Shown in pieces: positions 14,596 through 47,325 of a DNA stretch of 64,000 bases. A model generated the notes under the pieces. That model saw only the letters and a program-made list of their open reading frames with translations. It did not search any database and was not told where the DNA came from. Origin of the DNA: a virus. Positions within the stretch are counted from its first letter, which is position 1. Every line of letters begins with the position of its first letter. Position numbers and translations under genes: made by a program. The stretch lies in the IMG/VR virus record IMGVR_UViG_3300029892_000001. One strand, 5' to 3'.

Positions 14596-15152
14596 TTGGA
14601 GCCTGGCTTTCCTACGACAGGAAACACCCCTTGGTGTTGAAGCCGGTCTGCAGCGGTTATCGACCCGGTTCGCTGCCACTTTTCGAACAGTGCGGCGACA
14701 TCTTGTTTGGTACGGAGTGATGTCATTTCTCGAACTTCGTCCAGTACACGGACGAAGTCACCAAAGCCATCTGATAGAGTGACGTACACCTGGCTAAGGC
14801 CATCCACTGATAGGGAGGCGGCGTTTCGATATGCGCCGCCTCCCATGTTTATTACGTACCTGCGAGTCACGCCTCTACGTCCAATGGCTTCCTCGAAAAA
14901 GCCGACGAGAATCAGCGCAGAATCTCCCATCTCCTTGAACCGTAGGAAGCGCTCTTTGGCGGAGCTAGCTCGGTGTGCTGCTTCGAGCTGAAAAACAAAC
15001 GGCTCTTGTGTTACGGGACGAGAGACTTGTCGCACGAGTAGGTCTACGAGGTAGAATTCGGTCCAGCTTTCTAACTGGAGACGAAGGCGTCCCAAGGCCT
15101 CACAAATGGCCTCATAAAAGAAAATCCGTGGGTCTTCTTTCTCAAATGCCAC
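14592..15152 (-). CDS. Conserved bacterial-type hypothetical helical protein
   Basis: YLVDLL, MGDSALILVGFF, YVINMGGGAY; recalled as resembling uncharacterised bacterial proteins (unverified). Confidence 0.6.
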   Translation of the reverse strand: MAFEKEDPRIFFYEAICEALGRLRLQLESWTEFYLVDLLVRQVSRPVTQEPFVFQLEAAHRASSAKERFLRFKEMGDSALILVGFFEEAIGRRGVTRRYVINMGGGAYRNAASLSVDGLSQVYVTLSDGFGDFVRVLDEVREMTSLRTKQDVAALFEKWQRTGSITAADRLQHQGVFPVVGKPGSN

Positions 15153-18100
15153 TTAGATCGAAGTCTAGCTCGTTACCATAGATCGCGTCCAGGGCTTTCT
15201 GGACATCAGGCATGATTCTATCGTACATCGGAAGCAGTTCAGGTCGCTTCTTTTTTAGGAAGAGCCTGAAGGCGTGTGCGGAGGTGACCTCGTGTGCGGT
15301 CGACCATTCCAACGCCTTTTCGAGGAGCAATTGAAGCCTCTTTCGCTCATTCCGATCAGGCGTTGCACCCGATGGTGCGGTAGATTTCTGCGGTGCCTTA
15401 GGCTGCTCTGCGCGCGCAGGCGCTGCTCCAGGAAGGAGACCCAAAAGGTCTGCCTTCTCCTTATCAGCCACTTCTAGTCGAGAGACGGCCTGGCTGATTT
15501 CCTCCGCTGTGAAGGAACCTAGATCGATAAGAGCACGAAGTCGCTGTACGCGTCTCGCATGCGTACGGTCTTTGGACAGAAGTTCGTGTAGACGGTCAGC
15601 CCGAACCTGTTCTTTCGTTTGAGCGGGTGGCGCCTGCTTTGTCTCTATCGACTTCTTAGCCTCATCTAGGGCCGCCCGCAGAGCGTTGAGACCGTCCGAG
15701 GCCTCTCCCTTTGTTGTGGGGCTTAGACTGACAGGCGGAAGGCTGTGTCCCATTGATTGAAGCTCGTGCGCCAACTCCTGTAGTTTCGCAATTTGCTTCT
15801 CGGTTGCGGGGTCGTCCCTCCACTGCCCCTTTGGACGCTTAGCAGAGGAGGCGGGAGGTCCACCCACAGGATCCTTCCCCTGTTGAACAAGACGAAGGTA
15901 AGCAGTGAGGTTTTTGATGTACTTCAGCGCAGCATTCTTAGCGGCGTCGCCAAGCTGCTCGTGGTTCTTTCGAAACGCCTCTGCCACCTGTCGGTAGGTC
16001 ATGTTTTCGAGGCCCGGCATGGCCTCATTTAGTGCGTTTATTTCATCTGGGGTAAGACCAGAATGTTTCACGACGAAGGTGTAGACGGCGGAACTTGTCT
16101 CCCGGTCCACGAGGGCAGCAGGAAGCCTCCCTCGTGTAGAAGGTGCCTTTCCTGGAGCCGGGGCTGGTTCTGCGGGCTGGGGGGCCGCCGCAGGCTCGGG
16201 CATGCGGAGAACTCGCCCTGACGAGAATGGTACGCCATCAGGCGACACAGGAACAAATTTCGCGTCTTCTGGAGAAAGTGAAACAGCTCCGCTTTCCGCC
16301 CGTAGATCGACGAGGCCTTGTTCCGCTGCTTGCAGTAGAGCGTTCTTCGCGTCTTCTGGTGCAATCTTTCCTTCTAGGCCGCGAACAACTTCAGACGAGT
16401 CGAATAGACGTTCGTCCTTCCCCTGTACTTTTTGTGCCTCTTCAAGCACTTTCTGAAGTGTCTCTTCATCCACTTCGCGTCGGATTGTCGGAGCGAGTCG
16501 AGCGGGAGCTTTTTCGACAGGCTTTTCACCCATCAGCTCCTCTATCGTCATTCCAACGTCATCTGTATCCTCAGCGTCAGGCGCAGCAGGCAACTCGATG
16601 TCAGGGATGTCGCTCTCTTGCAGCCCCTGTTCCTTGATGTAGTCAATCAGGTCATCTAGAAGGACTTCGAGGTGGCCCTGCCCAGAAAGTTGGGCCTTCA
16701 CCTTGTCCAATCCATTCTTCTGAACCGCTTCGAGAATTTCAGCAGCGTTCTGCTGCTCCTCTTCATCGAAATCGAACTCCTGGACCATCAGGTTCCAGAT
16801 GTTCCTCTTGAGCCGGTCTTTGGATTTGCTGCGAGGAGTGCTGTCCTCTTCAGTGACAACTTGGTCGGACTTCAGGAAGTCGACGGCCTCCTGTAGGTCT
16901 GGCGCGAAACGAGCGCCCTCTCCGCCTAGTTCATCAACAAGGTCTTCTGTGTGTTCTTCCAGGTCGGCCTTTGGCTCTGGCATTTCGTCAGAAATCTCGT
17001 CGGCGTCGAATTCCGGCGCCTGTTCCTCAACTCGACCCAGATTCGGGGTTCCATCCTCTGCAAAGAAAGACTCTCTACCACTGAGGGGCGGAACAGAGAT
17101 TCCACGGAAATCTGGAACTCCGTCGGAGCCAACCAATCCCTTTTCCTTGAAGAAGTCGACAAGAAGCTCAAACACGCCCTCTAACTGGGTGCCCTCAGTC
17201 TTCCCAACCAGCTTTTCGATGCCGGCCTTGCCCTCGTGAGCTTTCAACGCACGGATCGCATCCGCAAACAGATTCTTCTGTTGATCGTCTAGCTCGTATT
17301 CTGCCACAAATTCGTCGAAAATAGACTTACGTAGCTTTTTGCGCTGGGACTCCGGGGCGGGTGTCGACTTCTCTTGAAGGAGCTGTTGGACCTCTGGCTT
17401 CACTGCCTTTTCTGGAGTCTTCTCCACAGCAGGATGCTTGAACGGCATTCCAGTCAGGATGCTCAGGTCTGGAACGCCGGGCACGCCTGACTCGAATTTT
17501 TCTCGATTGCGCCCGATAAAAGTCAGCACCTTTTTGACGATGGGTAAGAACTTTGGGTTCTTCCGTAACAAGGCCTCCAGAAGTTCAGATGCGACCTTAG
17601 TGCCGCTCTCCATGCGAAGCTGAAGTGCGGACACGAGTTGCTGGGCAACGCGTGCTTCCGCTTCGTCCATATCCATGACATGAACCATCTGTCGGAAAGC
17701 AGTGGTCCGGTCATCCTGCGGAAGAAGCTCCTTCTGTTCTTGTTCTGGGACGGGGTCGACTTCATCTTGTTCGGTTGGGGTGCTCGGAGGAGCGCCCGGA
17801 CCAAATACGTCTGCCAAGCCCATGTCGTTCTGCATGTTGGCTAGGCCCTTGGTCCTGTTCAACTTTTCTAGGAAATGGCGCGTCACTTGGAAGAGGTAAG
17901 CAAGGCTGTAGGGCTTCGCTTCTCTCTTGTCTTCCTTTTCGAAGTGCTCCTGCATTTGGTCCAGGTCCATGCCGTGGAGCGCCAACTCGGACATTTGGTG
18001 GAGCAAATCAAGAACACGCTGTTGTGTTCCGGTGCGGGACTCAATGCCGCCGTCAGGTCCTGCCTCCTCTTGAAGCTGTCGCTGAATTCCGTCAATCAGC

Positions 18101-21100
18101 GGGCTCAAGTGTTCCTCTAGTGGGCGAGACCTATCATACTCTTCGAATGAAGGGAACTTGTATTGACCTGTGTACAGCGGTTTGAAATCCCAAGTGCCGT
18201 CTTCTTTCTGCAGGTCTTCGTGTAACGTCATGAAGTAAGACAGGCGCAAGGCGAGATTTAGCGCACCCTGAACCTTGGGGTTGCCCGTCTTCCTCAGGCT
18301 CTTGATGATCTTTGTGACCGGATCTCCGTTGTTGATGATCTGAATCATCGAGTGGAGCGCCTTCGCTTGCGTCTTGTTGCTTAGCGACGGCTGAGAGTTC
18401 AGGAGACTTTCAACTGCTGAATCGTCATCGGACAGGTCAACCTTTGGCTGCAACGATTCAACAGGCTTTGTGATTGTGGGCTTGAATAGCCCAGAAAGAT
18501 CCCAAACTCCAGGAGCCTGCTTCAAATCTGAAGCAAAATCTCGAAGGTACTCTACGACTGCGCGAAGGACTCTGTTCTGGTCAGGGAGCGTCTTAGCGGC
18601 TGAGAACTTGGGCTTGAAAGTTTTGATCGACTGACCTTCAGCGAAGTGCTTCCGAAGAGCCAGCATGAGACCCTTAAAGTTGTCCAGCCTCTTCTGATAG
18701 TCCTTTTTGGACTCCTCAGGGTCAATAGGAAGTGCAACCGAACGCAGTTCTTCGAACAAGGTTCTTTGAACCTCCGTCGGTGCTTTCTTTGCAGGTGATG
18801 TGAACCTGTCGCTATCTTCTTCCGTGGGCTTTTTCTTCGCCTCGTCGGTCGACGCCGGTTCCACGTCCTCTATGGCGTCAAGGGCCTCAGTAGCAACGAT
18901 ATTAGCCGCCTCGTCAAGCGAAATCAGCCCCTCGTCATACCTCTGGATGGCAGATTCTGCTTCTTCGGGTAGGCGTCCCTTGAAGTACTTTTTGCATCTG
19001 CGAATGAAGATCTCAGCAGAGATTTCGTCCTTCGTGTATTGCTCTGCAATCGTTTTCAGCGTTTTCGAAGCAGGTTTTGAGGCAGGGGTGCCTGCGTCTT
19101 CTTCAACAGGCGCCGTCTTCTTTGGTGTTGAGATGGCAGGCTGGGGAAGCTTCCTTGGCAGGGGCTGGTACGTATCCTCTTCGCCAGGCTGGAGCTTAGG
19201 CGGCTGATAGCCCTTACCCTTCTCTAGCTTTGGAACCTCGAACATGTTGTCGAGATTGAAACGACCATCACTACGCCTCAGCTCTTCGCGATCTGAGAGG
19301 AATTTGTAGACCTTTTGGAGTACCTGTAGTTCTTGCGCAGAATTATGACTCCTGAGGTGCTCCTCAAGCTTGTTCTGAAGCGGACGTAGTTTCTTCTCTA
19401 ACTCATCCTTCTTCGAGTCCAGTGCTGCTTGCTGTTTGGCAGTCAACTCCAAGAACTTTTCTTTTCTGGAGCGAAGGTCTTCGATCTTCTCTTTCAACTG
19501 ACGGAGCTGGGTACGAACTTCTTCGTCAGCAAGTTCGACAGCCTGCCTTCGAAGTTCCTTCAGCTCTTCACTTCGCTCCGTCAGTTCATTTGCTAGGTCT
19601 TCCCTGGCCTCTTCTAGATCCTCGTTGCTGGCGTTTCGTAGATAGGAGTACTCTTTGAGGGCGTCCTGCTCCACTGGGTCTTCTGTTGCCTCGATGTTCT
19701 TGGGCGACAGAAGCTGGAATAGAGTGCTTGTCTCCCACGACTTGAGGAGCCCGATGATCTTTCGAAGTACCTGAAAGTGAGTCTTCTTTTTCGCTAACTC
19801 CTCATTGTCGGCAACAACAGTCTCCCGCAGTTTCTCTCGTGTCCGAAGCGCATCACTGAGTTCTTCACTAAGGCGTTCGTGTTCAGCCCGGCTCTGGCTC
19901 CAGGCCTTTTTCAGCTCTTCAACCTCCGCACGCAGATCCTTGGTGCGAGAGTCGAGGAGCTTCGCACCTTTTTGCGTCAAGGTGTCGATATCCTTTTCTC
20001 GCTGCTGAATCAGTGCATGGATGTCTCCGCCCTTCTTGTGCGTCTTAACAAGCTCCTCCATCAGAGAACGAAGCATCGCTTCATCCACCCCGGAGAGGCT
20101 CGTCTTAATCTGGTCAAAAAGCGGTGTGCGCTTCTCTTCCGGTCGCTTTACTGCCGCAGGGGGTGCTTGGTACTCATCCCGCTCGATCGTAGACAGTTCA
20201 TCGCGAAGCGTTTGTTTTCCAAGTTGCTTGTCGTAGTACTGAACGAATTCCGGGAACTTCTCTTTGAAGAAGTCTTTCCTCGCCTCATAGACCGTATTGA
20301 ATTTTCCTGCGAACTTGTCTAGGGCTCTCTCGTAGACCTTGTTGACGACACCAGTTGCGGCCTGAGAAATGTTTCCCTGATCGTCGGCCTCGATGTTGAA
20401 CTCATCGATTGCAATCTCTTGCAGACGCGCCCCTGGCGAGTCCGCAGGGCGTAGACCATCTGGAAGGACTTCATACTGCTTATCTTCGGCGTCCTGATCG
20501 CGACGAAGTCGACCCGGAAGCGCCCACATCCAACGGAGGATGTTCTCCTCGTCTTGCTTGAGTCCTGACTTTCCAAGCAAGCCCACCAAAACCTGTTGGA
20601 ACGAACGAGTCTTATCCTCAGGGGCTTGCTTCAGGTACCCCAAGAACTTGTCGTGTTCAATTCCCTTTGCACCATCCTTCCCTACGAGGATGGCTTCAAA
20701 GGGACGAATCATCTTACGAAGAGAACGGTCTTCCTCTGCTTTTTCTCGAAGGATTTCCAGGAGAGTATCTGCTGCTTTTTGCCTCTTCGTCTTGATCTGA
20801 TTCATCTTGTTCGAATCAGATGGGTCAACGTTGAATGGCTCTCTGGCTGCAATCTCTTGAATCGTAAGGCGTTGTCCCCCCGGCTCCCCGACTCCAAGAA
20901 GACCCTGGAGAATGGCACGATCTTCGTCGGTTAACCTGGGGTCTTCTTCTACGAGGAGAATCTCACCGATGAGATCAAGTAGCTTTTCTACGTTTTCCTG
21001 AGAGATTGCTTCTTCAGCCTTTGTCAGGGGATCCGCACCTTCATCTTCCTGCATTTCAACCAAAGACAGCGATTCCCCCTCTTCATCAGTCCTGACGACT

Positions 21101-23583
21101 GGGCTCACTTGTCTCTTAGCCCTGATTGTCTGAGAGTAGGATACCTTGACTTCTTCGCCGCCATTGAGTGGCGAGAACTCGATGGTGCCTTTGGTTGGAT
21201 GGGCGCGATACTGGTCCTTTCCAATTCCCGTGGAATCTCCTCCAATACCAGGGGCCTCGACTAGGAGAGACTTACCCCTGTACGCCTCACTCAGCCAAAG
21301 AGTTCCACTGGAGTGTGCGAAGTAGAAGACATCTGGATCCTCTGCAACCTTCTTCTTCAGCTCCTTGTTCCAGGGATGGTCCTTACTACGAATGATTGCA
21401 AGCTTTTTGCCGGTCTTTGGGTCGGTGACAGAGACTTGGGCGTCTTTGTCCATCTCCTTGCCGAGTAGGATCTTGACACGAGGGCTCTTCCTCTTCTCCG
21501 CCTCGGTGGCAAACAGCTTACCGCTTGCTGAAGTGAAGACTTTGCCGTCAGGCCCTGTAACTTCAAGGTCTTCTAAGCGAATGCCGGGGACCTTCAGGTC
21601 TACTTCGCCTCCGTCCTCTGGAATTGTGACTGTAGTGGACCCTGACCTAGTCGTTTCGACTGTCTGTTCCTGTTGGTATTTGTCGAACACCTTCTTCAAG
21701 GCGTTCGTTACTCGGCGCTTGATGACCGGGTTTCCGTAGATTCTGAACTTCTTCGGATCTGGGGTGGTTTCCTTATTACGTCTCTCGCGATCGAATTCGA
21801 GAATCGCCCGCCGAAAAGCCTCCAGTGCCACAACTTGCAGATCAGCTAATCCAATCCCTGCTCGCTCAAAAACCGTTTTGATCCCTTCCCACCTCGGATC
21901 CCTTCCCTTTTTCTTCTCCCTCGCCTTCTTTGAAGCCCTTCCCTTTTTCTTCTCCCTCGCCTTCTTTGAAGCCCTTCCCTTTTTCTTCTCCCTCGCCTTC
22001 TTTGAAGGGTAGTATGTATCAGCATCAAGGATCCAAGAAATGAGGAGACCTGTGTAGTACTTTGAGAAATCAACTAGGTCTTCATCGAGCCGGTTTGCTT
22101 CTTGGCGGACACGCTTCAAATACTTTAGGGTGTTCAAGTCCAAAGATCTTGAACCGGCGCCCCCAAACTCTGGGAAGTCCTCATCCTTTGCGGACTCGGA
22201 CTGCATGTCATAAATGCGCTCTGCGAGCAGGCTCGCAAGGCTGTAGAAACGCGCAAGTTTAGGGGCTATTTCTGTTTGAACGTAATCGCGTGCAAGTTCA
22301 CGTGTGTCCTGGTCGTCGTTCTCTTCCCGCTTGGCAAGGAGCTGCTCGAACTCCATGAACTCTCGCGTAAGGTCGGGTACGCTCCTAAGTTCTTCCTCTT
22401 TTTGGGGTTCGCTCTTTTTGCTGCCGAGAATTTTATCTCGGGTACTTTCAATCTCATCCTCGATGATGGGAAGCAGGGTATCCCGAACAAATGCAGGGTC
22501 TGGGTTGTCCAGAAGGTGCATCCACAAATTCTCTGCACGAGACTTGAACGACTCTACAAGCTGGTACTCCTTCTCCTCACCCTCTTCTCCTTCTAGGGTG
22601 AGTGGCTTGCCCTTCTGCCCCTTAACATGGTATTCCACCACGTAAGTGGTCCCAGAAGCTGAGGGATCGCCCCAGGTTAGAACGCCGTTCACATAGTTGT
22701 ACGAGACCTCTCCAGGACCTACAGGTCGACGGAACTCAATCCGAACCTTCGTTCCTCCATTTGCCTCGTGAAATCGCAGTACCCCTACGTCGCTTTCGAC
22801 GTAGTATGTATTGGGTTGAAGATTGGCAGGGCTTTCTACTGGGGTAAACCTATCTCCTGTTTCCGCGCTTTCCACGTACACAGACGTCGAGTCGACAGGC
22901 CTCCGAAGATTAATCTCTAGTTTCTTGCCCGAGATAGTTCGCGTGACTTGAGTAGGGGCTCCCTGCAACACAACGTGCAGTTCTTTGCCGGTCTGTTCAT
23001 TCCTGACAGTGATTCCTTTTCTGAAATCTACATCTGTTCCGAGTTTTGCCTGCAGAGAATCGTTTACGGTGACCTTCTTGGACTCAGGTGTCCACTTAAA
23101 CCACCCCTCGTCCAAATGCCACAAACTATCTGCCGGAGTGGTTGTTACTCTGGGCTTCTTGCCAGAAGTCTCGTTATCCCCATCGTCTTCGTCCGCATCA
23201 TCGTCGAGGTCATCTTCATCCTCGTCATCGTCGCTCTCAATGCCTTCCTTCCACAAGTAGTTAATCTGAACACGTGCTCCAGCATCAGATGGATGGAAGA
23301 ACAGCGTTCCGTCCTCTGGGAGGAGAAAGTACTGACCTTGTTCTAGGGTTTGATTTTCGGACGCGACAAACTCCTTGTCGGTCCTCAGGTCCGTCACAGC
23401 GACGGAGTCCGGAAGAATATTGGTGTTCTGAAGATGTACTTCTCCACCATCCGGAATTACGACCTTCTCAAGCTCCTGCTGGGGTTCGTCAACCCCAAGT
23501 GCGTTCGGCCCCTCTAATGACAGAGAAGACTCATCCTCAGGAGAAGCCTTACGCATGATTCTTTTGGCAGTATTTAGGGCCAT
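15142..23583 (-). CDS. Giant (2813 aa) probable virion protein with split sigma70-like regions, beta-modules and helical repeats
   Basis: Uninterrupted 8.4-kb ORF in the late block; domain details in findings. Confidence 0.9.
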   Translation of the reverse strand: MALNTAKRIMRKASPEDESSLSLEGPNALGVDEPQQELEKVVIPDGGEVHLQNTNILPDSVAVTDLRTDKEFVASENQTLEQGQYFLLPEDGTLFFHPSDAGARVQINYLWKEGIESDDDEDEDDLDDDADEDDGDNETSGKKPRVTTTPADSLWHLDEGWFKWTPESKKVTVNDSLQAKLGTDVDFRKGITVRNEQTGKELHVVLQGAPTQVTRTISGKKLEINLRRPVDSTSVYVESAETGDRFTPVESPANLQPNTYYVESDVGVLRFHEANGGTKVRIEFRRPVGPGEVSYNYVNGVLTWGDPSASGTTYVVEYHVKGQKGKPLTLEGEEGEEKEYQLVESFKSRAENLWMHLLDNPDPAFVRDTLLPIIEDEIESTRDKILGSKKSEPQKEEELRSVPDLTREFMEFEQLLAKREENDDQDTRELARDYVQTEIAPKLARFYSLASLLAERIYDMQSESAKDEDFPEFGGAGSRSLDLNTLKYLKRVRQEANRLDEDLVDFSKYYTGLLISWILDADTYYPSKKAREKKKGRASKKAREKKKGRASKKAREKKKGRDPRWEGIKTVFERAGIGLADLQVVALEAFRRAILEFDRERRNKETTPDPKKFRIYGNPVIKRRVTNALKKVFDKYQQEQTVETTRSGSTTVTIPEDGGEVDLKVPGIRLEDLEVTGPDGKVFTSASGKLFATEAEKRKSPRVKILLGKEMDKDAQVSVTDPKTGKKLAIIRSKDHPWNKELKKKVAEDPDVFYFAHSSGTLWLSEAYRGKSLLVEAPGIGGDSTGIGKDQYRAHPTKGTIEFSPLNGGEEVKVSYSQTIRAKRQVSPVVRTDEEGESLSLVEMQEDEGADPLTKAEEAISQENVEKLLDLIGEILLVEEDPRLTDEDRAILQGLLGVGEPGGQRLTIQEIAAREPFNVDPSDSNKMNQIKTKRQKAADTLLEILREKAEEDRSLRKMIRPFEAILVGKDGAKGIEHDKFLGYLKQAPEDKTRSFQQVLVGLLGKSGLKQDEENILRWMWALPGRLRRDQDAEDKQYEVLPDGLRPADSPGARLQEIAIDEFNIEADDQGNISQAATGVVNKVYERALDKFAGKFNTVYEARKDFFKEKFPEFVQYYDKQLGKQTLRDELSTIERDEYQAPPAAVKRPEEKRTPLFDQIKTSLSGVDEAMLRSLMEELVKTHKKGGDIHALIQQREKDIDTLTQKGAKLLDSRTKDLRAEVEELKKAWSQSRAEHERLSEELSDALRTREKLRETVVADNEELAKKKTHFQVLRKIIGLLKSWETSTLFQLLSPKNIEATEDPVEQDALKEYSYLRNASNEDLEEAREDLANELTERSEELKELRRQAVELADEEVRTQLRQLKEKIEDLRSRKEKFLELTAKQQAALDSKKDELEKKLRPLQNKLEEHLRSHNSAQELQVLQKVYKFLSDREELRRSDGRFNLDNMFEVPKLEKGKGYQPPKLQPGEEDTYQPLPRKLPQPAISTPKKTAPVEEDAGTPASKPASKTLKTIAEQYTKDEISAEIFIRRCKKYFKGRLPEEAESAIQRYDEGLISLDEAANIVATEALDAIEDVEPASTDEAKKKPTEEDSDRFTSPAKKAPTEVQRTLFEELRSVALPIDPEESKKDYQKRLDNFKGLMLALRKHFAEGQSIKTFKPKFSAAKTLPDQNRVLRAVVEYLRDFASDLKQAPGVWDLSGLFKPTITKPVESLQPKVDLSDDDSAVESLLNSQPSLSNKTQAKALHSMIQIINNGDPVTKIIKSLRKTGNPKVQGALNLALRLSYFMTLHEDLQKEDGTWDFKPLYTGQYKFPSFEEYDRSRPLEEHLSPLIDGIQRQLQEEAGPDGGIESRTGTQQRVLDLLHQMSELALHGMDLDQMQEHFEKEDKREAKPYSLAYLFQVTRHFLEKLNRTKGLANMQNDMGLADVFGPGAPPSTPTEQDEVDPVPEQEQKELLPQDDRTTAFRQMVHVMDMDEAEARVAQQLVSALQLRMESGTKVASELLEALLRKNPKFLPIVKKVLTFIGRNREKFESGVPGVPDLSILTGMPFKHPAVEKTPEKAVKPEVQQLLQEKSTPAPESQRKKLRKSIFDEFVAEYELDDQQKNLFADAIRALKAHEGKAGIEKLVGKTEGTQLEGVFELLVDFFKEKGLVGSDGVPDFRGISVPPLSGRESFFAEDGTPNLGRVEEQAPEFDADEISDEMPEPKADLEEHTEDLVDELGGEGARFAPDLQEAVDFLKSDQVVTEEDSTPRSKSKDRLKRNIWNLMVQEFDFDEEEQQNAAEILEAVQKNGLDKVKAQLSGQGHLEVLLDDLIDYIKEQGLQESDIPDIELPAAPDAEDTDDVGMTIEELMGEKPVEKAPARLAPTIRREVDEETLQKVLEEAQKVQGKDERLFDSSEVVRGLEGKIAPEDAKNALLQAAEQGLVDLRAESGAVSLSPEDAKFVPVSPDGVPFSSGRVLRMPEPAAAPQPAEPAPAPGKAPSTRGRLPAALVDRETSSAVYTFVVKHSGLTPDEINALNEAMPGLENMTYRQVAEAFRKNHEQLGDAAKNAALKYIKNLTAYLRLVQQGKDPVGGPPASSAKRPKGQWRDDPATEKQIAKLQELAHELQSMGHSLPPVSLSPTTKGEASDGLNALRAALDEAKKSIETKQAPPAQTKEQVRADRLHELLSKDRTHARRVQRLRALIDLGSFTAEEISQAVSRLEVADKEKADLLGLLPGAAPARAEQPKAPQKSTAPSGATPDRNERKRLQLLLEKALEWSTAHEVTSAHAFRLFLKKKRPELLPMYDRIMPDVQKALDAIYGNELDFDLSGI
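21900..22007. repeat. Perfect tandem repeat, 3 x 36 nt, in frame in the giant ORF
   Basis: CCCTTCCCTTTTTCTTCTCCCTCGCCTTCTTTGAAG x3; encodes SKKAREKKKGR(A). Confidence 0.97.
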
Positions 23584-32963: not shown

Positions 32964-34397
32964 TCAAATTCTTTCGTGAAGCGGCAACTTGCGAGTAAAC
33001 TTAGGCTCCTCAACAATAACCTGGGTTTGGGGAGATTTCACATACGTAACAATGTGTTCATCAGTGCCCTCGAACCCCGGGCCCAGGGCCTCTTTATCCT
33101 CTGGCTCTTCCTCTTCTTCAGACTTAGAGGAGTCGAAATCCAAGAACTTTGAAAGTCGATTAGAAATGTTTGTGAGGCCTCGATCTCGGGCAACAGCGCT
33201 CACAAAACGCAGTGTCGTGGCAGCCGACTTTGGCATGTAGACGACAACTGGACGATAGAAGAGTTGAAATTCGTCAGGACCAGCGCCAATAACTTGGTTG
33301 ATTTCCAGTTCTTGGTCTGCATTCTTAGTTACCAACATCACCGTCTTGCCTTCCAACTCATCGAAACGGCGTGCCTGTTTTGGCTCTTTAAGACGGAGCC
33401 GCATGCTCCCTTCCCTGTTTCCAATTCCAACGACGTGAATTGGGATTTGGATCTCCCCAAACTGGAGATATGGCTTTGGTACGCTGCCCCCTTCTCGAAG
33501 CGAACCTTCTGTGAGAGGGATTGGGAACTTACGTGTTTTGCCTAAATTGAGTGTAAGATGGTCTACGTTCCATGCGAGAGATTTGGGTACGGAACGAGGA
33601 GACGGGTCGTGGTTATACGACAACGTCAAATGTGGCTTATAGTTCTTGAGAGCAAATGTGGTGTCGACTTTCCCTGGAAAGTAGTGCTCACACATCTCTA
33701 CCACCAGATCGTGGTAATCTTTGAGGCCCTCGCTCAGAATCTTGGCAACGTGTGGATACGTTCCGTCCTCTTGCTGGTTGGGGAATACGGTACCACCGTC
33801 AATCATTACGTCGAAACTTCCCACAATGTCAGCAGCTTCTGCTGCGATAGGCAATATCTTTTCGACGTCTTCGGGAGAGAGCTTAGGGAAAAAGCAGACT
33901 GTGATATGAGGATCGTACGGAAGGTCCTCAGAAATTGGCAACTGTTCTACGATATTTGCCGGCACGGGAACGCCTATGATGCCACTCTCTTCGAAGTCCG
34001 CAATAATAGGCTTCTGGTCTTGTGCTGAGAAGGCAAACGTCATTACGAACGGGGAGTCCAAGTATCGCTCTGTCGTTGCGCCTTTTGGAAGTTCTGTCAT
34101 ACCAGAAAGTAGACCAATGAATTCATCCGTACCGACCTTGAACCGAACCATAGAGCCGATTTTGGCTGCAGCAGTACGCTGAATGTGACCGATTTCCGAA
34201 GGTCCTTGGTCTCGATCATGCGACCAAGTGAATTCGATTCGGAGGGTTCCTCCTGAGGCCTTTACGTTCAAAACTGTTCCGTCAAAAGACTGAGAATCGA
34301 GAGCCATAGTTGTCTCTCGATTTCGATACTTCGTCAGAACTCGTTCAGCAGACTTGGGGTCTGTAACCTTGTCTGCAGATAAAAACCGGAAGCCCAT
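32964..34397 (-). CDS. Multidomain protein with central 2H phosphoesterase (2'-5' RNA ligase / Acb1-like) domain
   Basis: Two HxT motifs: DPHITVCF and KPHLTLSY. Confidence 0.8.
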   Translation of the reverse strand: MGFRFLSADKVTDPKSAERVLTKYRNRETTMALDSQSFDGTVLNVKASGGTLRIEFTWSHDRDQGPSEIGHIQRTAAAKIGSMVRFKVGTDEFIGLLSGMTELPKGATTERYLDSPFVMTFAFSAQDQKPIIADFEESGIIGVPVPANIVEQLPISEDLPYDPHITVCFFPKLSPEDVEKILPIAAEAADIVGSFDVMIDGGTVFPNQQEDGTYPHVAKILSEGLKDYHDLVVEMCEHYFPGKVDTTFALKNYKPHLTLSYNHDPSPRSVPKSLAWNVDHLTLNLGKTRKFPIPLTEGSLREGGSVPKPYLQFGEIQIPIHVVGIGNREGSMRLRLKEPKQARRFDELEGKTVMLVTKNADQELEINQVIGAGPDEFQLFYRPVVVYMPKSAATTLRFVSAVARDRGLTNISNRLSKFLDFDSSKSEEEEEPEDKEALGPGFEGTDEHIVTYVKSPQTQVIVEEPKFTRKLPLHERI

Positions 34398-35773: not shown

Positions 35774-36904
35774 TTAGACGCGGACGCCACGGTTGACGGC
35801 ACGACCATTCACGATTACCTGGCCCTGGATCTGCTCCATGAACCAGCCACGAGCCGGGCGGCCCATGTTGTACTGGTCAATGGCACGAGAGTCCAGCTCC
35901 TTGCGCTGCGTGATGGTTCCGAGCGTCACGGGGGAGGCCGTCACGTAAACCTCACCAGGCTGAAGAACCTGCAAGGTTTCGTAGCGGTAACCATCCGTGA
36001 TGATCTCCATTCCAAGCATGGAGCCAAGGCGACCCTCAAGGATCAACTCATGCTTGTGGACCTGATCCCACCAAGCCACGAAGTCGGCGTCGGCGATGAT
36101 GTCATCCCAGATATCCCAGGCGATTACCATCGTTGCAGCCGGCGTACCCCAGCGGTTAACCTGAGTACGAAGCGTGGTAAGAACAGATGGGTTGAATGTC
36201 GTGAAGAGCACCAAGTCGTTGAACGTGGTTGCTGCGCGGTTCAAAAGAGCGCGGGTGATGAGGTCTTCACGACGAAGGATTGCCTCTAGACCATCCTGGA
36301 ACTTCTCGTCGAGAATGTCCGTTGAGGCCTGCTCGATTTCCTTGTCCTCGATAAGGATGTGTGCCGCAAGGTAGAACTCGGGCGGGTATACCCAAGGCTG
36401 ACGAATGCGCTGCTCCTGGACCTTGACGTCAGTCGTGATCTGGAACGCAACAACGTCCTTACGACGAACCTTGACTCGGCCGGTCTGACCCTTTGCAAGG
36501 GGCATAACCGAAAGGAGTCGACGAGAGAAGCCTTCACGGCCCAACGTCTCCCAGATCTCCTCCGAGATGACCTCTCCGAGAACCTGGAACTTGGATCCAG
36601 ACTTGTCGTAGTAGGCCTCACGAAGGTGGGCAAGACGCTGCATCGACTCTTCAGCCGAAGCATGGCGCTGGGTTACAACATTCTCCCGAGCCTGATGCAG
36701 AACGTTGCCGATAACCTGCATAAGCTCGCGCTTCGAAGAAGCGTTTAGCTCACCATTGCGACCAAATGCGGGTCCAGCAGAAAGCTGAGTACGGCCGCCA
36801 GCCAGACGAACACCACCTCGAAGACCATCCTCAGAGGTTGCGGGAACGTCCGGAGCCTGCCGCATTACCTTCACACCGGGACCAGAAGCGTACGGGTTTG
36901 CCAT
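35774..36904 (-). CDS. Major capsid protein (HK97-fold type)
   Basis: 376 aa from ATG 36904; follows protease-scaffold-decoration; DGLEAILRREDL, G.LG...GMEIITDG, QPGEVYV patterns. Confidence 0.85.
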   Translation of the reverse strand: MANPYASGPGVKVMRQAPDVPATSEDGLRGGVRLAGGRTQLSAGPAFGRNGELNASSKRELMQVIGNVLHQARENVVTQRHASAEESMQRLAHLREAYYDKSGSKFQVLGEVISEEIWETLGREGFSRRLLSVMPLAKGQTGRVKVRRKDVVAFQITTDVKVQEQRIRQPWVYPPEFYLAAHILIEDKEIEQASTDILDEKFQDGLEAILRREDLITRALLNRAATTFNDLVLFTTFNPSVLTTLRTQVNRWGTPAATMVIAWDIWDDIIADADFVAWWDQVHKHELILEGRLGSMLGMEIITDGYRYETLQVLQPGEVYVTASPVTLGTITQRKELDSRAIDQYNMGRPARGWFMEQIQGQVIVNGRAVNRGVRV

Positions 36905-37116
36905 TGTTATTCTCACTTCAGAGAAAAGGGGTTGGTTGTTGGAAACTCTCTACTTCAGTCTTTTTCGAGCTTGGTTTGGAAGGAGAGCCCTGTCTCCTAA
37001 AGGCAATCTCATACTAGCTTCTTGAGTCCCGGCATGTATTCCGGGTAAGACTTTCTCGAACATGAATCACATAAGAGAATGACTTTAAGAAGTCTTTCTC
37101 CGTGGTCGAAGAAAAA

Positions 37117-37413
37117 TCATCTGAACCGTCGAATTCTATTCTCCGTTAACCCGGGAATTGCCTCCAGGAAAGCCTGTCCGACTACATGTAGTGCAGCATT
37201 GTGAGAGGGACGAAGCTCTGGAACGACGGCTATATCTGCTTCCGAGGTCCCATCGGAATAGGAGACGGTAGCCGTGACAGACAGTTCTTCTGCATCAACG
37301 GTCGTTGTTGCTGACAAGCTTTGTTGCTGAATCCCAACTGATGGGTAATTGAGCTGGTCAAAGCCATTGACTGCTGGTGGATGCTGAACATTGGCAGGGA
37401 CTGTGATTGTCAT
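37117..37413 (-). CDS. Small hypothetical protein between decoration and capsid genes
   Basis: 98-aa ORF from ATG 37413; no clear SD. Confidence 0.4.
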   Translation of the reverse strand: MTITVPANVQHPPAVNGFDQLNYPSVGIQQQSLSATTTVDAEELSVTATVSYSDGTSEADIAVVPELRPSHNAALHVVGQAFLEAIPGLTENRIRRFR

Positions 37414-37425
37414 GCATAGAAAATA

Positions 37426-37460
37426 CAAAAGGCCGAGTTGATTTCCAACTCGGCCTTTTG
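37426..37460. terminator. Bidirectional-type intrinsic terminator
   Basis: CAAAAGGCCGAGTTG-ATTTC-CAACTCGGCCTTTTG, perfect 15-bp stem. Confidence 0.85.
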
Positions 37461-37487
37461 GTTTTGCGGGTTGGTTACCGCTTAGGT

Positions 37488-38195
37488 TCAGGAGAGACCG
37501 GAGAACTTCACTCCAAGACGACCATCTGCCACAGACGGGACCTGGGAAACGATGCCGATGGCCACGCCACCAGCAGCCGTCGTCACTTGGCCGCCTGCAC
37601 CAGAGTTCACGACATTGCCTACTGCGTAGGCCTGCGTTGTGTCGTACATCGTGGTAAAGATCTCACCCTCCATGCAACCAACGCCAACGGTGCTGAAGTA
37701 GTCCTGAGCGCGGTTGTTGATGGAACGCTCGTGCCAAGTGGCAAGAGCCTCATCAAGAGTTGGGGTGTAGCGATAGGTAACTGTCACGGTCTGTCCTGCT
37801 TCAGCAGCGTTGAACGTGATGGTACCGTCCGCGTTGTTCATCTGGAACTGACCAGCCGCGGGGGCGCCGCCTACCTCGGTAAGAACACCGGTAGTAGACG
37901 CGACTGCTCGCGTATCGTTAGCCGTCAGGTTGTTCTGACGAAGAGAGACTGTGCCGCCGCCTGCGGGAACGGTCAGACTCTCAACGACAGTCTGGGTAAC
38001 GTACTTGAGCGCATCAGTGATTGCGAAACCAGCGACACGGTCAGTAGCAGCACCCGCAGAAGGCTGCACCGCAAGGGTGCCGTCACCTGCGTCGACATAC
38101 ATAAGTAGCTGGCCTTCCTCGGTGATTGTGGCACCGGGGGCAACCGCTCGCTCACGGATGTCATTGAAATAGGAACGTGTAAGATCGAATGCCAT
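37488..38195 (-). CDS. Capsid decoration/cement-like protein with inserted beta-module
   Basis: 235 aa, Gly/Ala/Thr-rich, between scaffold and capsid genes; SD GGAG. Confidence 0.65.
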   Translation of the reverse strand: MAFDLTRSYFNDIRERAVAPGATITEEGQLLMYVDAGDGTLAVQPSAGAATDRVAGFAITDALKYVTQTVVESLTVPAGGGTVSLRQNNLTANDTRAVASTTGVLTEVGGAPAAGQFQMNNADGTITFNAAEAGQTVTVTYRYTPTLDEALATWHERSINNRAQDYFSTVGVGCMEGEIFTTMYDTTQAYAVGNVVNSGAGGQVTTAAGGVAIGIVSQVPSVADGRLGVKFSGLS

Positions 38196-38217
38196 GTTTT
38201 ACTCTCCCTCTTAGAGG

Positions 38218-39183
38218 TTATCGACTATGCATCCGCCGACGGAAGCCCAACGCCTCGCGGAGATGACTCTTGTCGTCGGACTCTTCCGAGTACGACGCAG
38301 AGCGAGTCTCCAGAGGAATGTTGTGCATGTGGCTAGAAGCAGACCTGGCGGAGGGAATTTCCTCGGACTCCGCAACAACGGGAGTGCGATGAGAAAGGCC
38401 CTTGATCTGCTCTTCCAGCTCCGCGAGAGCCTCCGGCTGGAGGTCCATCCACTTGAAGGCCTGCTTGAAGCAGTTCTCGAAGTGTTCGGGAGCCTTTGCC
38501 TGATAAGCAGCCTCAATGATTGCGACAGCCTGACGGTCAGTTACACCAGCCTCAATCATTCGGTTGAACAGCTCTGACTTGAGCACGTTCTCCGAAATGA
38601 AGTTCTTGGTCTGAGCAACTACGACCAGGTTAAGCATATTGAGTGCGTCGTCGCGGAGAGCTGCCTTGGCCTTGCGAAGCTCGGCCTTGGCCTTGTCTGC
38701 CGCAGCAGCCTCGATGCGCTGGAACGCATCACTTCCTGCAACTGCTGCGACGTATGGACGGGCGCGAACGCCAGCCAATACCTCAGCAAAGTCGAAGGAC
38801 TTAGCTGCCTCACGAACACCCTCGGCATACTTCTCAGTGATGAAAAGCTTCGCGATCTTCTGCGGCTCCTCCTGGTCTTCGAGACGAATCTCGGCAACCG
38901 GGCGACCACCAGCAAGAACCACCCAGTGGGGGTTCTCGGTCTGCTCTCCGTAGAGAAGCAGATCAACTGCTGCGGTCTTGGGAACCATCGTGGGATCGAC
39001 CACCGGGCACGCCATCTTGTCCGGAACCGCACTAGCAGGAGGTGCGGTGACGGGGGCGGCGGTGCGCTGCTCATCGGAAGACTTTTGTTCAGACTGCTTG
39101 CTCTCAGAAGCTGTCACGGCCTGGCGTGCCGCGAGGCGCTTCTGGCGAGCTGCTCTTAAGGCTGCTGCATCGTGCTTTGCCAT
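38218..39183 (-). CDS. Capsid scaffolding protein (candidate)
   Basis: 321 aa from ATG 39183; helical Ala/Glu/Lys-rich; position between protease and capsid genes. Confidence 0.6.
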   Translation of the reverse strand: MAKHDAAALRAARQKRLAARQAVTASESKQSEQKSSDEQRTAAPVTAPPASAVPDKMACPVVDPTMVPKTAAVDLLLYGEQTENPHWVVLAGGRPVAEIRLEDQEEPQKIAKLFITEKYAEGVREAAKSFDFAEVLAGVRARPYVAAVAGSDAFQRIEAAAADKAKAELRKAKAALRDDALNMLNLVVVAQTKNFISENVLKSELFNRMIEAGVTDRQAVAIIEAAYQAKAPEHFENCFKQAFKWMDLQPEALAELEEQIKGLSHRTPVVAESEEIPSARSASSHMHNIPLETRSASYSEESDDKSHLREALGFRRRMHSR

Positions 39184-39254
39184 TTTGGTTTTACCTTTCG
39201 GTTGGGCCCAAGAGCAAGGGGTGAGGGAGATGAACACCAGCGTTCAAATCCGGG

Positions 39255-40373
39255 TCACAAGGACTTGCTTCGTAAATATGCGAGTAAGACGATTCGTTTA
39301 GCTACGCGACGTAGTCTTTTTTGAGCCTGGAACTTGGCAGCCGTTTTTCTCGGCTGCAAAGACGATTCAAGTACAGAATAGAAGTACTTGAGCTTCTCTA
39401 TAATTGGCTGAGAAGTCTCAAAAAGCGATTTCAGCTCGTGGAACACCAAATCGATCGCTTCCAGCTTGGACTTGGTTCTCTGCGAGAGAAGCATCATTTT
39501 CTGAATTGCAGGAGATTGGCTGGCCTTTAGCCCTGCCTGATCCGGGGACAACCCTTCTTCTCGCAGTTGGCGAAGCGCCTGCTTAAATCTCTCTCGAACG
39601 AGTTCGGAAAGTTGCTTTGCAAGCTTCTCGTGTTTTTCCCTCAGATTTCCCAACTGGATATCTGTCTGCTTGCCCCACGTGTTGAACCCCATCAAGCCTT
39701 CCGACAAGGCTTGGTCTATATGGCTCATCACTTGCTGGTAATTGTTTGCATTAATTCTGGAGGAGAGAGGGCCAACCCTACGCAGAATTTCTTCAGCTTG
39801 ATCAAGAGACGCCAGCACATTGGGGAGGACCTGTTCTAGTTCCTTCGCCGCCTCCTGTTTTGCAGGATCGTCAGAAGACTTCAATTCATCAAGAGCAACT
39901 TCACTCCGAGTTCTGGCAAACTTGATCTTCTTCAAGAGAAGACTTGTTTGAGTTTGGACATGGCGAAGCGCCTGAGGTGAAGCCAGTCGAGTGGATGCTG
40001 ATACCGCTTCCTGTCCAAAAGCTCCCTGCCAACTGAAGGATACTCTTTGGTACCTACCATCGAAGAAATCATCATCCCACTCGGGATGTAAGCCGTATTT
40101 GGGAGCAAGTTTTTCTGCCTGTGCGATAAGCCAGGAGGCAACCTTTGGATTTGGGTGCAGAATCTCCAAGAAAGGCTCGGGTTCTTCGTGGCTTCCCATC
40201 GTTGACGAAGCAATGATAGGAGCTTCGGTATGTCCTTCTCTCGCAGCTCTTGGCACGCGATGGCCGTGGATAGGCGTTACTCCGATCCTTTTAGCCAGAG
40301 CATCTGCTAACCTAGAAGCGGCCTCATCAGCTTCCTTGAACACCAGAGACGCTGTCTTTTGAGAAAGGGACAT
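39255..40373 (-). CDS. Coiled-coil hypothetical head protein
   Basis: 372 aa, heptad-rich. Confidence 0.6.
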   Translation of the reverse strand: MSLSQKTASLVFKEADEAASRLADALAKRIGVTPIHGHRVPRAAREGHTEAPIIASSTMGSHEEPEPFLEILHPNPKVASWLIAQAEKLAPKYGLHPEWDDDFFDGRYQRVSFSWQGAFGQEAVSASTRLASPQALRHVQTQTSLLLKKIKFARTRSEVALDELKSSDDPAKQEAAKELEQVLPNVLASLDQAEEILRRVGPLSSRINANNYQQVMSHIDQALSEGLMGFNTWGKQTDIQLGNLREKHEKLAKQLSELVRERFKQALRQLREEGLSPDQAGLKASQSPAIQKMMLLSQRTKSKLEAIDLVFHELKSLFETSQPIIEKLKYFYSVLESSLQPRKTAAKFQAQKRLRRVAKRIVLLAYLRSKSL

Positions 40374-40401
40374 CTGAGTTATCGGTCAGAGAGGTCGGTG
40401 A

Positions 40402-41133
40402 TCATGTCCACTGCTTAACCCATCGATCATGAGCAGTATGATCGGCAGGATCAGCAACAGAAGAGGTTTCGATGAAGTTCACTCGGTAACAGCGTTCATA
40501 GACGAGGTGCCCCTCAAGAATTCGTCCCTTCCCCCTTCCGTACTCTTGGTGACGGCAAGCAATCTTGCCGTTCGGGGAGACTGCTCCGCACCCCGGATAG
40601 CTGCACTGCGTGTAACTTACGAGCGCTCCCATTGAGAATCCGGTGCGATCTCGACGTAGAATCGAATTAGCTAGGTCACGGTCCTTGGTCCTGTCCCAGC
40701 CCGCAAGCACTACGATTTTGTAGCGACCGTCTGCGGTCTTCTGCAATGAAGCATCAAAGTGAACGCCCTTCGCTTTTCGCGGATCACGATTGTCGTGATC
40801 CATATGCGTCGGCTTTCCGATGAAAGTTTGGTACACGAGGCGACCCAGCTCTGGATTGAAGGAGGTCACCTCGTCATACGGAAACTCATCGAGATTACGA
40901 TTGGGACACCCGACAGTAACGATCGGGATTTCATTGATAATGTAGTCGCGGATGTCTGCCGAAATTTGGTATTGCTCTGCAGCCATCGGCAACCAAGAGA
41001 TGTCAAGGCTGCGGGTCTTGTTGAGGATGTTCTCAGACGCAACACGAAGCTTACCGGTTACGTCTCGATGGGTCTCACAAGAAACCCCCTCAAAGACACG
41101 AGTGTCAAAGGTAGCATCTCCAAGCTTCAGCAT
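40402..41133 (-). CDS. Prohead protease
   Basis: KPTHMDH, TGFSMG (catalytic Ser), FIETSSVADPA; internal Cys ribbon; directly after the portal gene. Confidence 0.8.
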   Translation of the reverse strand: MLKLGDATFDTRVFEGVSCETHRDVTGKLRVASENILNKTRSLDISWLPMAAEQYQISADIRDYIINEIPIVTVGCPNRNLDEFPYDEVTSFNPELGRLVYQTFIGKPTHMDHDNRDPRKAKGVHFDASLQKTADGRYKIVVLAGWDRTKDRDLANSILRRDRTGFSMGALVSYTQCSYPGCGAVSPNGKIACRHQEYGRGKGRILEGHLVYERCYRVNFIETSSVADPADHTAHDRWVKQWT

Positions 41134-43493: not shown

Positions 43494-43616
43494 TACTTAC
43501 CGAGAAGCTTTCTGAGGACCTAGAGCCGCAAAAGTTGGTCCGAGATCCAGTGTGTTCATTTTACGGATGAACCCTTTGTGTCGTCCTGATTTCTAGGGAA
43601 GGCTCATGATTTTTGC

Positions 43617-43964
43617 TTACATCTTGATGTAAACGCGCATGGGATCTCTACGATCAATGTGGTCAAGCTTGTACTTACGAGTTCCGTTCTCGTACAAGTT
43701 GCGCATAAGCCTTTCTAAAAATCGGGGGAATTCGACGATGCTCATTCCATGAACAAAGAAGGACGCCATGCTCTTTTTGGCGTCCACATCGAGCCGCGGC
43801 TCCCTAACACCCATGTCATTCAAGACATCGTTGAAGATCTTGAATTGAAGGTTTCTCTCATCGTGATTCATACCACGAGCAAGACGCATAATAGCCCGAG
43901 CTTCAGACTTATGGCCTGCCTTCCACAAATCTGCGATGAGTGCTTTGGCTTCTTTGCGGTCCAT
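43617..43964 (-). CDS. Small hypothetical protein
   Basis: N-terminal LIADLWKAGHKSEARAIMRLA motif. Confidence 0.6.
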   Translation of the reverse strand: MDRKEAKALIADLWKAGHKSEARAIMRLARGMNHDERNLQFKIFNDVLNDMGVREPRLDVDAKKSMASFFVHGMSIVEFPRFLERLMRNLYENGTRKYKLDHIDRRDPMRVYIKM

Positions 43965-43967
43965 AAC

Positions 43968-44327
43968 TCAAACCGGAATGCAAACGTGGCAATTCGGGCA
44001 ATAGCGGGCCTCGTCGGATTCAGCTAGACGAACAAACTGCATTCCATGGCTGCATCGCGGACAGCCGCCTGCACTGCGAATAGCAGGATTCGCAGAGCGA
44101 CCCATCGGGCTCGTCGAGTTCGCCGTTCGAATGTTCGAACTTGACATGCCGTAATCTGCAAGGATGATATCCAACGCCAGAGGCGTGTCAGCATCTTCCA
44201 CTTCATTCTGAATGTCGGCCAGCTTCAGCTTTGTACGAATGCGTCGTAACTCTTCGTTTGTAAGCGCAGTCTTGATTTGGTAGCGCTTATGAGCGTCACG
44301 AATGAATTTCTCAACAGGGGTGCCCAT
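43968..44327 (-). CDS. Small protein with C-terminal zinc ribbon
   Basis: Start ATG 44327 with SD TAAGGAG; CPRC...CPNC. Confidence 0.65.
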   Translation of the reverse strand: MGTPVEKFIRDAHKRYQIKTALTNEELRRIRTKLKLADIQNEVEDADTPLALDIILADYGMSSSNIRTANSTSPMGRSANPAIRSAGGCPRCSHGMQFVRLAESDEARYCPNCHVCIPV

Positions 44328-44337
44328 GTTTCTCTCC

Positions 44338-46380: not shown

Positions 46381-46702
46381 TCAACAACTTCGAAATCTTT
46401 CTCACTGCCTTTGTCTCGGCCGTATTGCGCAGCAGATCACTCAGATGCTGACCGTGTCCGGGAGAGAGTTGGTACCGCGACTTGTTTTTGTCCTGTCTGG
46501 GTCCAGCGGGGTAAGACCCGTCATCGCAAGAACCTGCACTCATGTCTGCACAGGCTTCTGTTTCTTCGTACTCCAGAAGAAGTCGGTCCGCCTCTGCATC
46601 ATCCATGAAAGCAAGACGTTCCCAGCGCTTCACACGATCAATAATTCGTGCGACTCGAATGAGCCGTCTCTGGAGTTCAGGATTTGAAATCTGGGTGGTC
46701 AT
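46364..46702 (-). CDS. Small hypothetical protein
   Basis: PELQRRLIRVA motif; overlaps both neighbours. Confidence 0.55.
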   Translation of the reverse strand: MTTQISNPELQRRLIRVARIIDRVKRWERLAFMDDAEADRLLLEYEETEACADMSAGSCDDGSYPAGPRQDKNKSRYQLSPGHGQHLSDLLRNTAETKAVRKISKLLNGQAK

Positions 46703-47325
46703 TGAACTGTCTTCTCGCGGGCTTCTGCCAGACGAGCCTCTCGTTCTTGTTTCTTGACTCCGAAGTGAGTGTCGAGAGATTCTTTTGCTTCAGGAAGCAA
46801 CGCTTGAATTCGATCGGAGAGGCGCTTGAAAATCTCAGTAGAAATCCCTTTGGCATCCCTAGGCTGAATATCCAGCTTCAGCATTTCTTGCTGGAGATTG
46901 TTCATTTCCTCGGTACAGGCTCGGACGAGACTTAGCAAGAAGGGGTTAAACGACTTTTCGATGATCTCATCGACGACATCCTGTGGCTTCTGGAGGGCCA
47001 TCAGTTCTGCTAGAGCAATTCTGTATTCCGCCATAAGCCTCTGGTATGACTGAAGCATCATAGCGGAACCGTCACCTTGATCGATCGCGAGCTTAGTTTT
47101 GGCGCATTGGTCCTCAAGGTCGTCAACAATTTCCTGGAGGCGCTCGAAATGCGATCGTGGTGACTGAATAAAATTCTCAACGTAGTATCGGACGTCGTCG
47201 TAGTCCAATCCAAATTGAATGCCTATTTGCTCAGGTGTTTGACCTGCCTTGTAGGCATCCTCAATCATCTCCCTTTGTTCGGGCGAAAGATGCTTGAATG
47301 GGTTGTTCGCCTGAGGCAGAGTCAT
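46699..47325 (-). CDS. Terminase small subunit candidate (HTH plus coiled coil)
   Basis: LSPEQREMI...TPEQIGIQFGLDYDDVRYYV HTH; lies just upstream of terL. Confidence 0.5.
   Translation of the reverse strand: MTLPQANNPFKHLSPEQREMIEDAYKAGQTPEQIGIQFGLDYDDVRYYVENFIQSPRSHFERLQEIVDDLEDQCAKTKLAIDQGDGSAMMLQSYQRLMAEYRIALAELMALQKPQDVVDEIIEKSFNPFLLSLVRACTEEMNNLQQEMLKLDIQPRDAKGISTEIFKRLSDRIQALLPEAKESLDTHFGVKKQEREARLAEAREKTVQ

Follow-up and report, generated by a model that had tools for sequence, protein, structure and literature searches.

The 64,000-nucleotide stretch of DNA analysed here (hereafter the window) comes from IMG/VR virus record IMGVR_UViG_3300029892_000001 and corresponds to G000:C1:256452-320451, minus strand, within this 392,328-bp record. 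It carries an open reading frame (ORF) of 2813 residues (P0001), located on the minus strand at window positions 15142-23583. No other gene of the genome comes close to this one in size, and only one gene follows it in its late head operon. A preliminary description, made from the letters of the window alone, proposed that the product of this gene (hereafter the giant) contains a split sigma70 factor in the region from position 20311 to position 22130, which maps to residues 485-1091. The 2813-residue ORF is indeed present, and all of the short sequence strings quoted in that description are found at the residues assigned to them. Predicted structures indicate that this part of the giant probably contains folds of the sigma-2 and sigma-4 types. 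The parts of the gene are as follows, in window coordinates, where pLDDT is the predicted local distance difference test score.

15142-23583, minus strand: giant ORF, 2813 aa (P0001); homologues of 2071-2814 aa; synteny conserved
22594-23583, minus strand: N-terminal region, aa 1-330, with beta modules, an acidic low-complexity stretch and a conserved basic-x-A-(S/A)-acidic motif (RIMRKAS here)
aa 331-477, minus strand: conserved stretch, from the conservation profile
21649-22152, minus strand: sigma domain-2-like helical domain, aa 478-645, from predicted structure
21900-22007, minus strand: perfect tandem repeat, 36 bp three times, encoding KKAREKKKGRAS three times, inside the insertion of the domain-2-like region
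21109-21648, minus strand: beta-sandwich, aa 646-825, in the domain-3 position, from the AlphaFold2 model
21010-21108, minus strand: acidic linker, predicted disordered (pLDDT under 50), region-3.2-like, aa 826-858
20689-21009, minus strand: sigma domain-4-like copy 1, aa 859-965 (LTDEDRAIL, TIQEIA, long basic helix), from structure match
20284-20661, minus strand: sigma domain-4-like copy 2, aa 975-1100 (DEENILRW, RLQEIA, VYERAL.KF), from structure match
19084-20283, minus strand: charged, apparently helical or coiled-coil region, aa ~1101-1500, read off the sequence; lower conservation
15145-19083, minus strand: C-terminal half, aa ~1501-2813, with degenerate, apparently helical repeats and no family match

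The helices of the domain-2-like region lie at aa 483-518, 564-575, 579-596 and 619-644. An insertion (aa 519-563) is located between the first helix and the rest, and there is also a conserved 22-residue loop at aa 597-618. The KKAREKKKGRAS repeat within the insertion is absent from every homologue, and is hence a recent in-frame expansion. Two copies of region 4 had been proposed for the giant, and the two domain-4-like copies, the second of which has a long insertion separating its helices, are related to each other (hhalign 81%, E 1.3e-5); by this profile comparison they are true duplicates. A further relationship links the N-terminal beta module (aa 56-110) with aa 763-817 of the beta-sandwich (hhalign 93%, E 3.6e-7), and the beta-sandwich is weakly related to a 235-residue virion structural protein (hhalign 50%, E 1.7e-4). 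The extreme C-terminus (LDFDLSxL; window 15145-15200) is conserved in the family, and the 400 residues that precede it are the least conserved part of the giant.

There are 12 full-length relatives of the giant that were found by a word-indexed search, with 35-74% identity over the sigma-like region. A profile search of all 1.84 billion cluster representatives yielded 16 family proteins, of which 14 are giants of full length (2071-2814 residues) and the remaining two are shorter entries (443 and 1490 aa), and the family profile matched none of the representatives beyond those 16 at E 0.001. The sigma-like module is present in 16/16 of these proteins, and all of the originally quoted segments are retained in 20 further full-length homologues (29-77% identity over the region). 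The observation that the segments occur in the correct sigma order holds for the giant and is kept across its family. The module is also the best conserved part of the protein, with an identity of 0.63-0.68 versus 0.37-0.47 for the N-terminal, coiled-coil and C-terminal parts. All homologues are from uncultivated huge phages of ~400 kb. Searches of 50,697 phage records with megablast and tblastn gave no relative of the giant, and hence no cultured one. Nothing relevant was returned by Pfam and PHROG scans of the whole giant, of three of its sub-segments and of 13 homologues, and the same databases revealed no enzyme domain (peptidase, ADP-ribosyltransferase, nuclease, polymerase etc.) in the giant. 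A precomputed Pfam label, PF27067.1, is attached to P0001 and to one relative (P0012).

Predicted folds provide one line of evidence for the sigma assignment. An AlphaFold2 model of residues 470-1100 (631 residues), built from a 13-sequence alignment and having a mean pLDDT of 72.5, was aligned to each of 48,161 PDB representatives with no prefilter. In this model, aa 494-641 match sigma domain 2, aa 849-961 match sigma-4 domains, and model residues 505-631 (aa 974-1100) match SigW domain 4 and UPF0122. When domain 2 was modelled separately (pLDDT 82.3), the top 18 of the 48,161 PDB representatives were all sigma-2-type domains. These 18 are domain 2 of sigma factors, save for AR9 gp226 and a sigmaA domain-2-derived scaffold, and the top matches span whole sigma-2 domains, as is seen for the SigE N-terminal domain (80/80 residues). 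The stretches that had been labelled 'region 1.2' (aa 486-493) and '2.1' (aa 502-518) do fall on a long first helix that superposes on the helix before region 2.2, but these labels are not verifiable residue by residue. The predicted parts follow the order of a sigma factor, namely domain 2, linker 3.2 and domain 4, with the beta-sandwich substituting for domain 3. A Foldseek search of the 631-residue model against the PDB and Swiss-Prot gave lists dominated by beta-sandwich matches, and was uninformative for the helical parts. Sigma factors also come first in four more searches (Foldseek against the PDB, AlphaFold DB clusters with probabilities of up to 0.91, viral predicted structures, where the named top matches are phage sigma factors, and an ESM Atlas shape search), albeit with non-significant E-values of 0.5 or more throughout.

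Features derived from the ESM language model point in the same direction. Those of residues 475-650 are nearest to Sigma70_r2 clusters (0.94, 77/100 matches), and for residues 860-1100 the closest clusters are phage Sigma70_r4 ones (0.87). Residues 2385-2813, which serve as an internal negative control, gave no usable match.

Profile-to-profile comparison provides a further signal for part of the module. With a sigma alignment of six E. coli sequences, hhalign initially returned a probability of 1.4%, which rose only once a broader sigma profile was used. This profile combined the sigma factor of the phage itself (described below) and seven of its relatives with five sigmas of E. coli and two additional FliA sequences. 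It shares a single match with the 622-column family profile, in which aa 841-913 pair with RpoS 234-293 (score 32.6, P 0.0027, probability 11%). This part of RpoS runs from the last part of region 3.2 through region 4.1 into the first helix of region 4.2, in exactly the register that had been proposed from the sequence, and the C-terminal part of the acidic linker falls inside the alignment. Among the controls, the best of 29 column-shuffled sigma profiles scored 19.7 (P 0.14), the reversed sigma profile scored 18.3 (P 0.23), and four other slices of the giant scored 12.4-20.8 (P 0.07-0.7). The profile signal for aa 841-913 is weak but specific, with clean controls.

We conclude that the predicted structures and comparisons support the presence of a diverged sigma-type module, beyond the reach of family-profile detection, that is fixed inside a giant head-operon protein. 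Common descent of this module with sigma factors is also probable, somewhat less so than the presence of sigma-like folds.

The giant is located in a co-oriented block that opens with the genes for the large terminase, portal, prohead protease and major head protein. The main features of this block, and other genes relevant to its interpretation, are listed below; coordinates are those of the window unless G000:C1 is indicated.

35774-46380, minus strand: upstream genes of the giant's operon, as a block (PHROGs)
44338-46380, minus strand: large terminase (PHROGs; E 5e-60 to 5e-116 is the range across the four head genes)
41133-43493, minus strand: portal (PHROGs)
40402-41133, minus strand: prohead protease (PHROGs)
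37488-38195, minus strand: 235-aa virion structural protein (phrog_16710) adjoining the major head protein; shares the beta-module motif with the giant
35774-36916, minus strand: major head protein (PHROGs)
23538-23562, 36850-36870 and 43450-43470: MR.A[SP] N-termini of the giant, the major head protein and the portal, respectively
G000:C1:226993-228393 and 233494-237936: baseplate wedge gene and gene for a 1480-aa M23-type protein

The same gene order, including a 186-residue gene after the giant, is kept in a relative at 43% identity. In phage PaBG, tail genes follow the major head protein. No similarity to these PaBG tail genes could be detected in the genes that separate the giant from the capsid gene, and the baseplate wedge subunit and the 1480-aa protein, which has an M23-type peptidase/endolysin domain, are encoded 60-70 kb away on the other strand. 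Thus, 'late head block', the term used in the preliminary description, is a fair name for an operon that the giant shares with the terminase, portal, protease and major head protein, and in which most neighbours lack an assignment. That description also stated that the giant begins with a RIMRKAS motif shared with neighbouring virion genes. The sharing is evident only in the looser form MR.A[SP], of which there are 4 copies in the 121,690 residues of the genome's ORFs, and 3 of these lie within the first 25 residues of the portal, the major head protein and the giant. Homologues of the giant retain the basic-x-A-(S/A)-acidic pattern at the N-terminus, and the shared N-terminal motif may be a targeting or protease site.

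Two other genes near the giant are worth recording. A 477-aa protein of the operon (window 32964-34397, minus strand) has a 2H phosphoesterase or 2'-5' RNA ligase-like domain (PF02834, PF13563), and is kept in the relative's locus. Just upstream of the large terminase, a 208-aa ORF (window 46699-47325, minus strand) gives the best Sigma70_r4 match of the genome, which is sub-threshold (E 0.0028) and probably reflects the helix-turn-helix of a small terminase subunit.

The transcription machinery encoded elsewhere by this phage bears on the possible function of the module. There is no Pfam match to the beta or beta' subunits of RNA polymerase in the phage genome and no xADFDGD motif, and no match to a T7-type polymerase, for which the control search was uninformative. 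Since no polymerase of its own was found, the phage probably depends on the host enzyme. A separate sigma factor of 450 aa is encoded at L003:1069-2421, minus strand (G000:C1:246993-248345). Only Sigma70_r2 is matched by this protein, and both it and seven IMG/VR relatives end soon after region 4.1, which indicates that the region 4.2 helix-turn-helix is truncated.

An 18-nucleotide promoter-like motif, GAACCCTGCCGATAnTAa, occurs at ~20 sites in the 0.9-145 kb and 340-382 kb parts of G000:C1. It is located 28-107 nucleotides upstream of co-oriented minus-strand ORFs, ahead of ~20 non-structural operons. No site is present in window positions 1-64000, there is no -35-like partner at the usual spacing, and the motif is absent from those loci of relatives that were examined, which cover little of their genomes. 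The motif represents a phage-specific promoter class, for which the 450-aa sigma factor and the module of the giant are both candidate specificity factors.

The most likely reading, which we hold tentatively and at somewhat short of an even chance, is that residues 478-1100 constitute a highly diverged sigma70-type module that is carried in the particle and acts on early transcription. As with other giant phage proteins that are ejected, the particle would carry the giant and release it into the cell on entry. There, the sigma-like module would engage DNA and/or the host core RNA polymerase, and thereby would influence the first round of transcription. A giant protein encoded at this position is likely to be packaged and released, by analogy with the N4 virion polymerase, crAss-like gp66, T4 Alt and the polyvalent proteins of Iyer et al. 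(PMC5512222); these two steps, as well as the binding of RNA polymerase and the recognition of promoters, are inferred. A more specific form of this proposal is that the ejected module serves as a promoter-specificity subunit for the host core polymerase, and steers it to phage promoters, possibly those of the GAACCCTGCCGATAnTAa class, before any phage protein is made. This more specific form seems unlikely.

A number of observations weigh against the reading of a particle-borne sigma module, and many of these concern sequence-level detection. The sigma family profiles that had been suggested as a check give no support. Sigma70_r2 (PF04542) has no match at E<=10 on the giant or on aa 470-650, and the region-4 profiles (PF04545, PF08281) have no match within the ORF and their weak matches fall in other genes. 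Across the sigma families of Pfam, there is no match to the giant or to its three proposed segments at E<=10, or to any of the 13 homologues at E<=1. Six-frame scans of the genome with Sigma70_r2, Sigma70_r4 and Sigma70_r4_2 place nothing inside the giant ORF, and the same scans recover the 450-aa sigma factor as a positive control. Across the full set of PDB sequences, hundreds of them sigma chains, the family profile gave only chance matches, and its search of the 1.84 billion representatives yielded no sigma. For the ungapped matches to E. coli sigma70 that prompted the original assignment, 0.22-0.62 of 500 composition-preserving shuffles score as high, and thus the split sigma70 is not above chance on motifs alone; what stands of it are the predicted folds, the ESM features and the weak hhalign match (P 0.0027). 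No domain-2 signal was obtained with hhalign (P 0.06-0.29), and the short domain-2 alignments, though non-significant, fall in the proposed register (FD...FR). Every Foldseek match has E >= 0.5 and is non-significant. In addition, AlphaFold and ESM are both learned pattern recognisers, and hence neither is wholly independent of the other or of the model that produced the preliminary description.

The remaining observations of this kind concern function. In sigma70, Q406 and E407 of region 2.2 bind beta', and the region 2.3 tryptophans W433 and W434 melt the -10 element. In the proposed register, which is not a residue-level structural alignment, Q406/E407 correspond to V/V and W433/W434 to P/V, and these contact residues do not appear to be conserved. 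The helix-turn-helix of domain-4-like copy 1 has an 11-residue loop where the turn is expected. The apparent loss, in that register, of the contact residues of regions 2.2 and 2.3, the copy-1 loop and the separate phage sigma factor all argue against canonical sigma function. In a complex prediction that combined the sigma-2-like domain with E. coli beta' 225-345, both chains folded poorly, and it counts neither way. Finally, support for virion association is indirect and modest, and comes from operon position, conserved synteny and the beta module shared with a virion structural protein.

Several of these observations would be expected if the folds are real but exapted, such that the module serves only to bind DNA or to anchor the genome, as part of an internal head protein, and makes no contact with polymerase. 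Perhaps it grips a genome end or organises the packaged DNA. Such a role is consistent with the apparent lack of conservation, in the proposed register, of the beta'-binding and -10-melting residues, with two tandem helix-turn-helix domains that have basic recognition helices, with the location of the gene within the head operon, and with the fact that the phage owns another sigma factor for transcription. However, the sigma order and the acidic 3.2-like linker are kept family-wide and would be needless for plain DNA binding. Furthermore, we know of no polymerase-independent role for sigma domain 2 outside of sigma-type specificity factors, a group that includes gp226 and phiKZ gp68. On balance we regard exaptation as unlikely. 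A similarly small chance is given to the absence of any evolutionary link to sigma factors, in which case the module would consist of generic helical bundles and units like helix-turn-helices in a structural giant (a scaffold, inner body or spacer), and the sigma labels would reflect a pattern-matching bias common to the preliminary description, ESM and AlphaFold. It is difficult to reconcile such a bias with a set of 18 top matches among 48,161 PDB representatives that are exclusively of the sigma-2 type, with two separate segments that correspond, in the order expected, to the two domains predicted for them, with a sole hhalign match that lies in the predicted register and is better than all controls, or with a C-terminal control segment that lacks a sigma signal.

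Two other explanations retain less weight. The giant could be sigma-like and unpackaged, made late and acting in the infected cell, where it might sequester the host core polymerase or tether late transcription to assembling heads. Its gene is co-transcribed with late genes and no direct evidence places the protein in the virion, as this explanation would have it; but the giant has a beta module in common with a virion structural protein and an N-terminal motif in common with the portal and the major head protein, its gene keeps its place at the head operon's end in relatives as distant as 43% identity, and its size and beads-on-a-string build resemble those of known ejected proteins (PMC5512222). 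An unpackaged giant is thus considered improbable. Less probable still is a role for the giant as a tail tape measure or within the tail lumen, which its length and its apparently helical, partly coiled-coil character might suggest, as might the tail genes that follow the major head protein in PaBG. This reading, drawn from PaBG gene order, was rejected because no neighbour of the giant resembles a tail protein of PaBG, and because the sole baseplate gene to be recognised is found, with the 1480-aa wall-peptidase protein, 60-70 kb off on the other strand. In addition, globular beta and sigma-like domains are unusual in tape measures.

If residues 478-1100 are indeed a diverged sigma-type module, they differ in several respects from known specificity factors. 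Like bacterial and phage sigma70 factors of the group 3/4 type (FliA/sigma28, extracytoplasmic function (ECF) factors, and phage factors such as T4 gp55), the module has a predicted four-helix domain 2, an acidic linker and a domain-4 helix-turn-helix, in the same order. Unlike them, it has no family-profile match and is embedded in a 2813-aa protein, it has a beta-sandwich for domain 3, a duplicated domain 4 and a 45-80-residue domain-2 insertion, and the key residues that contact polymerase and DNA are not evidently conserved. The nearest structural precedents are phiKZ gp68 and AR9 gp226, which are sigma-like by structure without sequence similarity (PMC13282480, PMC9209446). These are free subunits of ~460-520 aa that belong to the non-virion RNA polymerases of jumbo phages and are partnered by phage-encoded beta and beta', whereas genes for beta and beta' were not found in the present genome.

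The nearest architectural precedents are polyvalent proteins (PMC5512222), the N4 virion RNA polymerase and crAss-like gp66, which are likewise very large, multidomain and encoded in virion modules. Those giants are thought or shown to enter with the DNA and to start transcription or counter defence. They carry enzymes (polymerase, ADP-ribosyltransferase, peptidase, nuclease), in contrast to the specificity-factor-like module of the present giant, in which no enzyme domain was found. The word 'sigma' is absent from the polyvalent-protein survey (PMC5512222), two reviews of jumbo phages mention free-standing sigma factors only, and we found no published description of a sigma module in a giant ejected phage protein. 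A virion sigma of phage SU10 was considered as a precedent and rejected, as it is represented by a single peptide among middle-gene products in a table of particle proteomics. T4 Alt, like other packaged host-takeover proteins, would follow the same proposed logic, being a head-packaged protein that acts on host transcription before phage expression. However, Alt is a polymerase-modifying enzyme, whereas the giant would be a stoichiometric binding module whose packaging is proposed by analogy.

There are three known routes by which phages begin transcription, namely the use of host sigma70 promoters, the injection of a whole polymerase (N4, phiKZ, crAss-like phages) and the injection of polymerase-modifying enzymes (T4 Alt). 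If the interpretation offered here is correct, a sigma-like specificity module in a giant head-operon protein would represent a fourth route, by which a huge phage without a polymerase would set its own promoter code as soon as infection starts. Should the module instead be a mere relic that binds DNA, it would nonetheless demonstrate that sigma domains are able to diverge past the point of profile detection and be built into structural giants, which would bear on the question of how many 'orphan' giant phage proteins conceal known folds.

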